Shown: in pieces, positions 55,816 through 56,198 of the stretch
Position numbering within the stretch: the stretch's first letter is position 1
Layout of the letters: each line of letters opens with the position of its first letter
NCBI RefSeq assembly: GCF_058153355.1
Contig: NZ_CM177019.1
Strand: one strand, 5' to 3'
Length of the DNA: 64,000 nt
The notes under the pieces: generated by a model
Told to the model about the DNA's origin: nothing
The model's input: only the letters and a program-made list of their open reading frames with translations
The model's database searches: none
Program-made: the position numbers and the translations under genes

Positions 55816-56198
55816 AAACGAGGAGCGTTTCTCCTCGTTTGAGACTGATGGCAAACGCAAAACTGCCTGATGCGCTATGCCTTATCAGGCCTACGAGGTT
55901 TCTGCAATGTATTGAATTTGCATGTTTTTGTAGGCCGGATAAGGCGTTCACGCCGCATCCGGCATGAACAACGTGCACTTTGTCAACAATCTGAAACGAG
56001 GAGCGTTTCTCCTCGTTTGAGACTGATGGCAAACGCAAAACTGCCTGATGCGCTATGCTTATCAGGCCTACGAGGTTTCTGCAATGTATTGAATTTGCAT
56101 GTTTTTGTAGGCCGGATAAGGCGTTCACGCCGCATCCGGCATGAACAACGCGCACTTTGTCAACAATCTGAAACGAGGAGTGTTCCCCCTCGTTTTTT
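55816..56198. repeat. Two tandem ~178 bp hairpin + REP-pair units plus a third hairpin
   Basis: Unit aaacgaggagcgtttctcctcgttt...gcctgatgcgctatgc...gtaggccggataaggcgttcacgccgcatccggca... at 55816 and again at 55994 (1 indel, 1 substitution). Confidence 0.85.

Follow-up and report, generated by a model that had tools for sequence, protein, structure and literature searches.

Background

How did a tandem array of hairpins and REP sequences come to lie in the spacer between yqjF and yqjG, and does its presence matter to either gene? Both questions are raised by the window, as we call the whole 64,000-nt stretch of DNA analysed here. An initial annotation of its sequence had seen in the hairpin and the REP pair a single module, and had suggested that the number of modules could tune read-through from yqjF into yqjG. 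A literature search for yqjF and yqjG together found nothing.

The array and its coordinates

The gene names used here are taken from the annotation of genome N96, which is 99.8% identical. In positions of the window, the array and its neighbours are as follows.

54808-55794, minus strand: yqjG CDS (glutathionyl-hydroquinone reductase), downstream of the array
55799-55807, minus strand: yqjG Shine-Dalgarno sequence GGAGGAGAG, read from the sequence, unchanged relative to K-12
55816-55840: hp1, the left hairpin copy, AAACGAGGAG-CGTTT-CTCCTCGTTT, recognised as an inverted repeat with a single-copy homologue in K-12
55841-55993, plus strand: BIME-1 copy 1, 153 nt, recognised by its sequence and by 89% identity to the K-12 uspB-pitA element
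55994-56018: hp2, identical to hp1, between both BIME-1 copies, without an A-run or a T-run
56019-56170, plus strand: BIME-1 copy 2, 152 nt
56171-56198: hp3, the right hairpin copy, AAACGAGGAG-TGTTC-CCCCTCGTTT followed by TTT
56220-56612, minus strand: yqjF CDS (DoxX family), whose 3' UTR now crosses the array

The order is therefore hp-BIME-hp-BIME-hp, with each unit made of a 25-nt hairpin and a 153-nt BIME-1 (152 nt in copy 2). Tandem Repeats Finder reports a period of 177 with 2.1 copies and 97% matches (score 725) over 55816-56195. A repeat search pairs a 65-nt block at 55816 with one at 55994 (100% identical, offset 178 nt) and a 138-nt block at 55881 with one at 56058 (97% identical, offset 177 nt). 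Over their full length of 177/178 nt, units 1 and 2 differ only by a 1-nt indel, which is an extra C at 55881 ('gccttatc' versus 'gcttatc'), and by one substitution (T at 55974, C at 56151). The other mismatches of the array are confined to the third, partial unit.

hp1 and hp2 each form a perfect 10-bp hairpin (aaacgaggag/ctcctcgttt). hp3 is diverged (aaacgaggag tgttc cccctcgttt and three T), has one A-C mismatch in its stem and is separated by 21 nt from the stop codon of yqjF (56220-56222), downstream of which it lies. In its main lines the initial annotation described all this well: two near-identical units of a hairpin and an inverted REP pair at 55816 and 55994, set apart by one indel and one substitution, a third and diverged hairpin at 56171-56198, two inverted REPs in each unit and the yqjF-yqjG context can all be seen in the sequence. 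Two details have to be amended. The proximal hairpin had been placed about 20 nt upstream of the yqjG ribosome binding site; it is 8 nt from the Shine-Dalgarno sequence and 21 nt from the ATG (55794-55792). The T-run ascribed to the third hairpin does exist, but on the plus strand, antisense to yqjF; on the sense strand it is an A-run, and what follows the hairpin there is UUUCAGAUU.

Could such an array be an artefact of assembly or sequencing in a repeat-rich region? REP-rich regions are prone to mis-assembly, and a sequencing error could account for the extra C at 55881, seen in the window alone. The internal junction, however, recurs at 100% identity in ten independent complete genomes, which differ in host and country of origin and have spans that fit two units. 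We consider an artefact extremely improbable and have rejected it as an explanation of the tandem duplication.

Identity of the repeated element

The element between the hairpins belongs to a family that is already known, BIME-1 (also RIP or RIB). A BIME-1 consists of a REP and an inverted REP around a well-conserved long linker L, often with an IHF site (PMC3333891), and is about 140 bp long (PMC1187871). The parts of the two copies in the window are these.

55841-55863: left terminal motif of copy 1, GAGACTGATGGCAAACGCAAAAC
55864-55894: REP of copy 1 in iREP orientation, ending in CTAC
55895-55929: L linker of copy 1, 35 nt, including TGCAATGTATTGAATTTGCA
55930-55964: REP of copy 1, opening with GTAG
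55965-55993: right terminal motif of copy 1, ending CAACAATCTG
56042-56071: REP of copy 2
56072-56106: L linker of copy 2
56107-56141: REP of copy 2, opening with GTAG
56142-56170: right terminal motif of copy 2

The REPs are inverted, with CTAC (55891-55894) and GTAG (55930-55933) facing the 35-nt linker, and likewise in copy 2; the REP arms 55879-55894 and 55930-55945 are 94% complementary. One REP matches GTAGGCCGGATAAGGCG exactly, and the REPs of the element may be of types Y and Z1, those of BIME-1. The linker is of the long L kind. Its core, TGCAATNTATTGAATTTGCA, was found in 107 stretches of species-representative genomes; most are from Escherichia and Pseudocitrobacter, and a few seem to be matches by chance. 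In the consensus of 42 full-length copies the ends of the element are imperfect inverted repeats (TGAGACTGATGACAAA versus TCAGATTGCTGACAAA, 13/16).

The element is also dispersed and polymorphic. With a 601-nt query around it, the median number of matching places in an E. coli genome is 21; the element is 152-153 nt long and multicopy, and at this locus about 89 genomes are filled as against some 5,300 that are empty. That BIME-1 may be present in one isolate and absent from another was known before, as PMC1187871 states with reference to Bachellier et al. 1997. The window array is thus like other BIME-1 in its inverted REPs with GTAG and CTAC facing a linker of about 35 nt, in its element length of about 140-150 bp, and in its extragenic position at the 3' end of a transcription unit. 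It is unlike them in being tandem and in having a host-derived hairpin within the unit; moreover, the yqjF-yqjG site is empty in K-12 and hence outside the K-12 set of BIMEs. BIME-1 are said to "occur as single copies" (PMC3333891), whereas there are two tandem copies here and tandem copies also at loci L054 and L103, though the phrase is a descriptive generalisation about BIME-1 and not part of its structural definition. The element is not a BIME-2, which would have Z2 and Y REPs, a short S linker and s/l/r motifs in place of the 35-nt L linker, host hairpin and terminal motifs found here.

Among the remaining REPs of the window (6149-6285, 51579-51595, 16183 and 37036), none has a BIME-1 linker. 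The first of these is a BIME-2-like cluster of four alternating REPs, and the one at 51579 is an exact match to a Z1-type REP.

A dedicated RNA regulator was considered as well and rejected: the Rfam scan gave only REP-derived 'sRNA' models, and no riboswitch or attenuator family. Two models fall on the linker and REPs, naRNA4 below threshold and ES036 (CssrF sRNA) at gathering score. The ES036 matches are on the minus strand of the BIME-1 linker, at 55887-55927 and 56064-56104, and score 38.4 where the gathering score is 37.6. This suggests that the 'sRNA family' model ES036 captures repeat-derived sequence and not a dedicated gene.

Origin of the flanking hairpins

In K-12 MG1655 the spacer between yqjF and yqjG is only 69 bp long. 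It has a single hairpin, AAAAACGAGGAG-CTTC-CTCCTCGTTTTTT, bordered by an A-run on one side and by a T-run on the other. The allele in the window equals the K-12 site plus two times a BIME-1 with an extra hairpin copy, and with the insertion in place the A-run is found with the leftmost hairpin copy and the T-run with the rightmost. Judged by this comparison, the three hairpins are copies of the native yqjF-yqjG terminator hairpin, in the form of a target-site duplication that has been duplicated again.

Is this a peculiarity of one locus? The best non-orthologous match in K-12 is a BIME-1 between uspB and pitA, 89% identical. It is flanked on the left by AGCGGGCCAG-TAAA-CTGACCCGCTC and on the right by AGCGGGCCAG-CTGACCCGCTC, a hairpin unlike that of yqjF-yqjG, with an A-run to the left of the left copy and a T-run to the right of the right copy. 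From the K-12 sequence minus the BIME-1 and minus one hairpin copy we predicted an empty site of 54 nt. This predicted site is found in E. coli at 100% identity, and a match covering at least 80% of the 54 nt is present in 3,440 of 5,426 genomes. A third pair of filled and empty sites is provided by yigI-rarD, where E. coli E69 is filled and has a duplicated 15-nt AGCAGGTAAACTGCT, while IAI39 is empty and has one copy. The query with E69 flanks matched only 8 genomes, E69 being divergent, so that this pair serves as an example and not as a basis for frequencies.

These empty sites dispose of two simple alternatives. The hairpin is not an intrinsic part of the mobile unit: hairpins are specific to their locus, and empty sites have the hairpin once. 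Nor, at the three loci for which empty sites were found, did BIME-1 land between tandem hairpins that were there before.

A broader survey covered the 42 full-length BIME-1 copies that have both terminal motifs; they represent 31 distinct loci. A direct repeat abuts both ends of the BIME-1 (within 2 nt) at 16 of the 31. At 15 of these 16 the abutting repeats fold as hairpins, and often the palindrome is co-extensive with the repeat. When left and right flanks from non-orthologous loci are paired as a control, only 1 of 1694 pairs passes in the same way. The pattern of whole-hairpin duplication is probably a real signature of insertion. About half of the surveyed loci are without a clear flanking duplication; at several further loci there is a hairpin on one side only, or the copies have diverged. 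One-sided hairpins are compatible with decay, although they do not prove it.

Tandem arrays of a local hairpin with BIME-1 occur in other Escherichia species as well.

L103, 13901-14685: tandem array of local hairpin and BIME-1
L098, 44-370: tandem array of local hairpin and BIME-1
L054, 1695-2063: tandem array of local hairpin and BIME-1

One such array, with a period of 173 and 2.1 copies, is in Escherichia sp. E1V33; another, in Escherichia sp. MOD1-EC7003, has a period of 162 and at least 4.8 copies and runs off the end of its contig. In the latter array BIME-1 has a truncated left terminal motif.

Several further observations concern such flanks. At L008 and L080 the flanking hairpin copies differ by paired compensatory changes (for example GGTAACACC versus GGCAACGCC), with perfect stems kept. 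These changes suggest either selection on each hairpin copy or correction within each palindrome. Escherichia sp. MOD1-EC7003 has in addition long tandem REP-linker-REP arrays with a BIME-1-type linker (L100, L102, L107 and L108). Their periods are 107-115, they reach at least 7 copies, and they are without terminal motifs or hairpins; presumably they are the 'atypical BIMEs' of the literature. The window itself has another BIME-1-like element, in the yhaH-yqjG spacer at 54628-54809. This one is older and degenerate, and its linker is a variant, tgcaacatattgaatataaatg. A hairpin and a T-run (aggcacctcgtaaggtgccttttttt, 54784-54809) flank it on the right; on the left there is only a short remnant, aggcgct. 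These flanks would fit a decayed hairpin duplication.

Distribution of the alleles among E. coli genomes

The initial annotation had proposed comparing the copy number across E. coli genomes. In 5,426 complete genomes, searched with a 1221-nt query across both flanks, alleles with zero, one and two units do segregate. At least 80% of the query is matched by 88 genomes. Non-filled genomes were sampled in even steps down the ranking, and all 58 of them span 859-865 bp, which is the empty size. The junction of hp1 with BIME-1 is present in 89 genomes; a 61-nt query over the internal junction, used to count one-unit and two-unit alleles, finds that junction at 100% identity in 10 of the 89. About 98% of the genomes are thus empty, about 79 genomes have one unit and 10 have two.

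By their flanks, the filled alleles can be sorted into two haplotypes, one about 99% identical to the window and the other about 96.6%. One unit is found also in Escherichia sp. E1V33, which is a separate species in the GTDB-based collection; the filled allele is therefore either old or transferred. In all units aligned (those of the window and of four genomes, including E1V33) the junctions are identical, which points to a single insertion event. The T of unit 1 at position 55974 is common to both two-unit genomes that were aligned and absent from one-unit alleles, and this points to a single duplication event. The two-unit allele, then, is rare and appears to have arisen once.

The surroundings of the array were compared too. 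The 5 kb on each side (50834-60536) are 94.5-96% identical to K-12 MG1655. In the yqj/yha region most E. coli genomes are 90-96% identical to the window and only 23 genomes reach at least 99%, so the window has an uncommon yqj/yha haplotype.

Probable insertion followed by duplication

Taken together, the sequences make it very probable that a BIME-1 inserted into the yqjF-yqjG terminator hairpin with duplication of the 25-bp palindrome, and that the second unit was added later. The comparison of sequences shows three steps. First, BIME-1 entered the GC-rich hairpin of the intrinsic terminator, and the whole 25-bp palindrome was copied so that one copy stands on each side. Second, the original A-run remained at the left hairpin copy and the T-run at the right one. 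Third, a second BIME-1 with its hairpin was added, probably by misaligned recombination or replication slippage between the hairpin copies. The crossover would fall within the 10-nt arm AAACGAGGAG, which is common to hp1 and hp3.

The third step can be imagined differently. The second unit might have come from a second transposition, with the neighbouring BIME-1 hopping locally into a hairpin copy. If hairpins are the preferred target, then each duplicated copy is a new target, and longer arrays do exist at other loci. Insertion into hp1 would yield hp1-BIME-hp1-BIME-hp3, in agreement with the identity of hp2 and hp1. The same structure, however, is predicted by a crossover or slippage in the 10-nt arm shared by hp1 and hp3, so that the identity of hp2 with hp1 is expected from either route. 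The two BIME-1 copies are near-identical to each other and only about 89% identical to other genomic copies, which again fits both routes if the donor was adjacent. On balance we think local hopping rather improbable and prefer recombination or slippage.

A second objection concerns the direction of change, which at yqjF-yqjG we infer from allele frequency. Might the filled state be ancestral, and might recombination between the flanking hairpins have excised the insertion precisely, time and again, to leave the K-12-type site? Two E. coli haplotypes share the insertion, junctions included, with Escherichia sp. E1V33, and 25-bp direct repeats around 153 bp are a classic substrate for deletion. 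Excision of a whole BIME-1 was reportedly described by Bachellier et al. in 1997. Yet the roughly 98% of E. coli genomes that are empty occur in every sampled part of the ranking, and the K-12 loop, CTTC, is no simple hybrid of the loops of hp1 (CGTTT) and hp3 (TGTTC). That there are only two groups of flank haplotypes is in keeping with a rare, linked allele which descent or recombination has spread. We find an ancestral filled state unlikely; even if it were correct, it would alter the timing only, and an insertion that duplicates the hairpin would still be needed. Gain by insertion, followed by duplication, is the order of events that we retain.

How might BIME-1 insert?

At loci with the signature, the duplicated segment is the entire palindrome together with 0-3 flanking A·T pairs. 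It is dyad-symmetric, and its length (15-30 bp) is set by the target. Such duplication of a whole and symmetric palindrome suggests that cleavage is directed by structure and cuts both strands at the base of the stem. The substrate could be an extruded cruciform or else single-stranded DNA folded into hairpins, and fill-in would follow. An insertion of this kind would not destroy termination, as it would regenerate, for either direction, a distal hairpin that bears a U-tract. The resulting direct repeats would permit both precise excision and tandem amplification.

We know of no REP transposition mechanism that predicts a duplication of 15-30 bp. The obvious candidates do not agree well with it: the transposases associated with REPs are similar to those of IS200/IS605, a family described as making no larger target duplications (PMC2817692), so whole-hairpin duplication is a mismatch for Y1 transposases of the IS200/IS605 type, to which the RAYT family belongs. 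In REPIN/RAYT (TnpA-REP) systems the mobile unit is regarded as an inverted REP doublet that needs a single-copy Y1 (HUH) transposase (PMC3337134, PMC3333891). The inverted REP doublet as the mobile unit is a feature common to these systems and to BIME-1. Duplication of a target hairpin, on the other hand, is unreported for REPINs in the literature examined.

There is also a likeness to MITEs such as Correia/NEMIS, ERIC and RUP. BIME-1 is small and non-coding, has imperfect terminal inverted repeats and is flanked by a target duplication, although this duplication is atypically long and defined by structure; its mobility is deduced from population data. Classical MITE duplications are a few bp in length and fixed, whereas that of BIME-1 is a complete palindrome, variable within 15-30 bp and dictated by the target. 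The direct-repeat target duplications of MITEs are described as short, the quoted one being 5 bp, and MITEs as being co-transcribed with neighbouring genes and folding into long stem-loops (PMC3184786).

BIME-2 and atypical BIME arrays resemble the array of the window in that their copy number varies between strains and tandem copies at one locus are near-identical (PMC3333891). They differ from it in consisting of REP pairs with short linkers and s/l/r motifs, with no host sequence in the unit. The arrays with periods of 107-115 at L100, L102 and L108 are of the BIME-2/atypical kind and are without the terminal motifs and hairpins of the yqjF-yqjG array.

What would be new in all this? That the element is a BIME-1, and that BIME-1 is present in some isolates and absent from others, was already known. 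The departures from published descriptions are three: a BIME-1 in tandem, a host hairpin inside the repeated unit, and a whole terminator hairpin duplicated at the flanks. The last is undescribed in the REP/BIME literature that we searched, though it may already be known from the primary papers of the 1990s. As a general statement, that BIME-1 targets the hairpins of intrinsic terminators in a structure-directed way and duplicates the palindrome, we would call it somewhat doubtful that the proposal is at once true and not yet described.

Inferred consequences for transcription

Targets of BIME-1 resemble bidirectional intrinsic terminators, being GC-rich stem-loops that stand between an A-run and a T-run, as at K-12 yqjF-yqjG and at uspB-pitA. 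They cease to resemble them after insertion, which splits the two halves and leaves each strand with a U-tract only at the promoter-distal hairpin. BIME-1 consequently joins the 3' UTR in both directions.

In the window this can be followed hairpin by hairpin. On the sense (minus) strand, hp1 is followed by the U-tract UUUUUGCUAUU and is the sole terminator-like site that a terminator scan detects in 55500-56500. hp2 and hp3 are followed on that strand by UUUCAGAUU, with no U-tract. On the antisense strand hp3 has a T6, which the scan did not flag. Since the U-tract on the sense strand is present only at hp1, an array would have a single canonical terminator however many units it contained. 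To judge from the sequence, the insertion would shift this terminator 178 or 356 nt downstream; it would not add terminators.

The additional RNA is predicted to be highly structured. With their flanks, hp1 folds at -16.6 kcal/mol and hp2 at -23.4 kcal/mol; in the predicted fold of hp2 the stem is lengthened by pairing of the adjoining BIME-1 termini. For the segment that starts at the yqjF stop codon and takes in the first 12 nt of yqjG, the minimum free energy is -23 kcal/mol for the empty site of K-12 (84 nt), -100 kcal/mol for one unit (265 nt) and -186 kcal/mol for two units (443 nt). A two-unit yqjF transcript would carry 356 extra nt of folded RNA, with four REPs and two hairpins that have no U-tract, before it came to the terminator at hp1. 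Between hp1 and the yqjG ATG the sequence does not differ from that of K-12. A promoter scan of 55500-56500 found no sigma-70-like site, so the units bring no obvious promoter for yqjG.

One feature of the yqjG leader may be mentioned separately. The yqjG Shine-Dalgarno GGAGGAG resembles the 5' arm of the hairpin, CGAGGAG (55799-55840, minus strand). Because the one repeats the other, the 3' arm CUCCUC could pair with either, which might give an alternative structure that hides the ribosome binding site.

Does the array, then, regulate yqjG? The proposal that hairpin and REP pair form a regulatory module, with one or two units tuning read-through from yqjF, can call upon the stable hairpin and two REPs which each unit gives to the transcript, upon the segregation of alleles with 0, 1 and 2 copies, and upon Espeli et al. 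2001, whom PMC2817692 and PMC3733652 cite for Rho-dependent attenuation associated with BIMEs. It is difficult to reconcile with several of the results given above. The added hairpins have no U-tract on the sense strand. The hairpin is a duplicated target in the host, no designed part of the unit. The two-unit allele is confined to 10 of 5,426 genomes and apparently has a single origin, while 98% of E. coli genomes are without any unit. For these reasons tuning by copy number finds no support in the form proposed, and we judge a regulatory module to be highly unlikely. The rarity and apparent single origin of the two-unit allele make it look like a neutral or nearly neutral structural variant and not like a tuned regulator.

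This does not mean that the array is without effect. Earlier work cited in PMC3333891 and PMC2817692 credits REPs with stabilising mRNA and with providing sites for Rho-dependent attenuation. It is plausible that the structured RNA added to the transcript, 178 or 356 nt in length, alters the stability of yqjF mRNA or the transcription that reaches yqjG. The effects are likely to be modest, either protection of the yqjF 3' end of the REP type or some additional Rho-dependent attenuation towards yqjG. Such modest effects of an array would not amount to a graded regulatory device.

Significance

The yqjF-yqjG array, a rare structural variant by which the 3' UTR of yqjF and the leader of yqjG are lengthened, is in itself minor. 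It may concern those who use the yqjF promoter region or who compare the expression of yqjF and yqjG between strains.

The pattern that it belongs to may be of wider use. According to the literature it has yet to be established by what route REPs and BIMEs spread to new sites (bioRxiv 10.64898/2026.03.23.713779, PMC3333891), and target duplication of exactly one terminator hairpin is a concrete and testable clue to their movement. From it follow predictions of the target (an A-run, a stem-loop and a T-run), of the cuts (in both strands, at the base of the stem) and of the product. Hairpin duplication would also explain why BIME-1 are located at the 3' ends of transcription units, why they can be lost cleanly and why they are usually harmless. 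The harmlessness would follow from preserved termination in both directions: at a bidirectional terminator, transcripts coming from either side would cross a hairpin without U-tract and the BIME-1, and would end at the distal copy. Two-way termination preserved in this manner may explain why insertions of BIME-1 are tolerated.

If the older literature does not already contain it, the recurrent duplication of whole hairpins adds a clue to how BIME-1 insert, excise and amplify. If the proposed mode of insertion is true, the alleles with zero, one and two units at yqjF-yqjG would be a natural record of insertion, excision and amplification.
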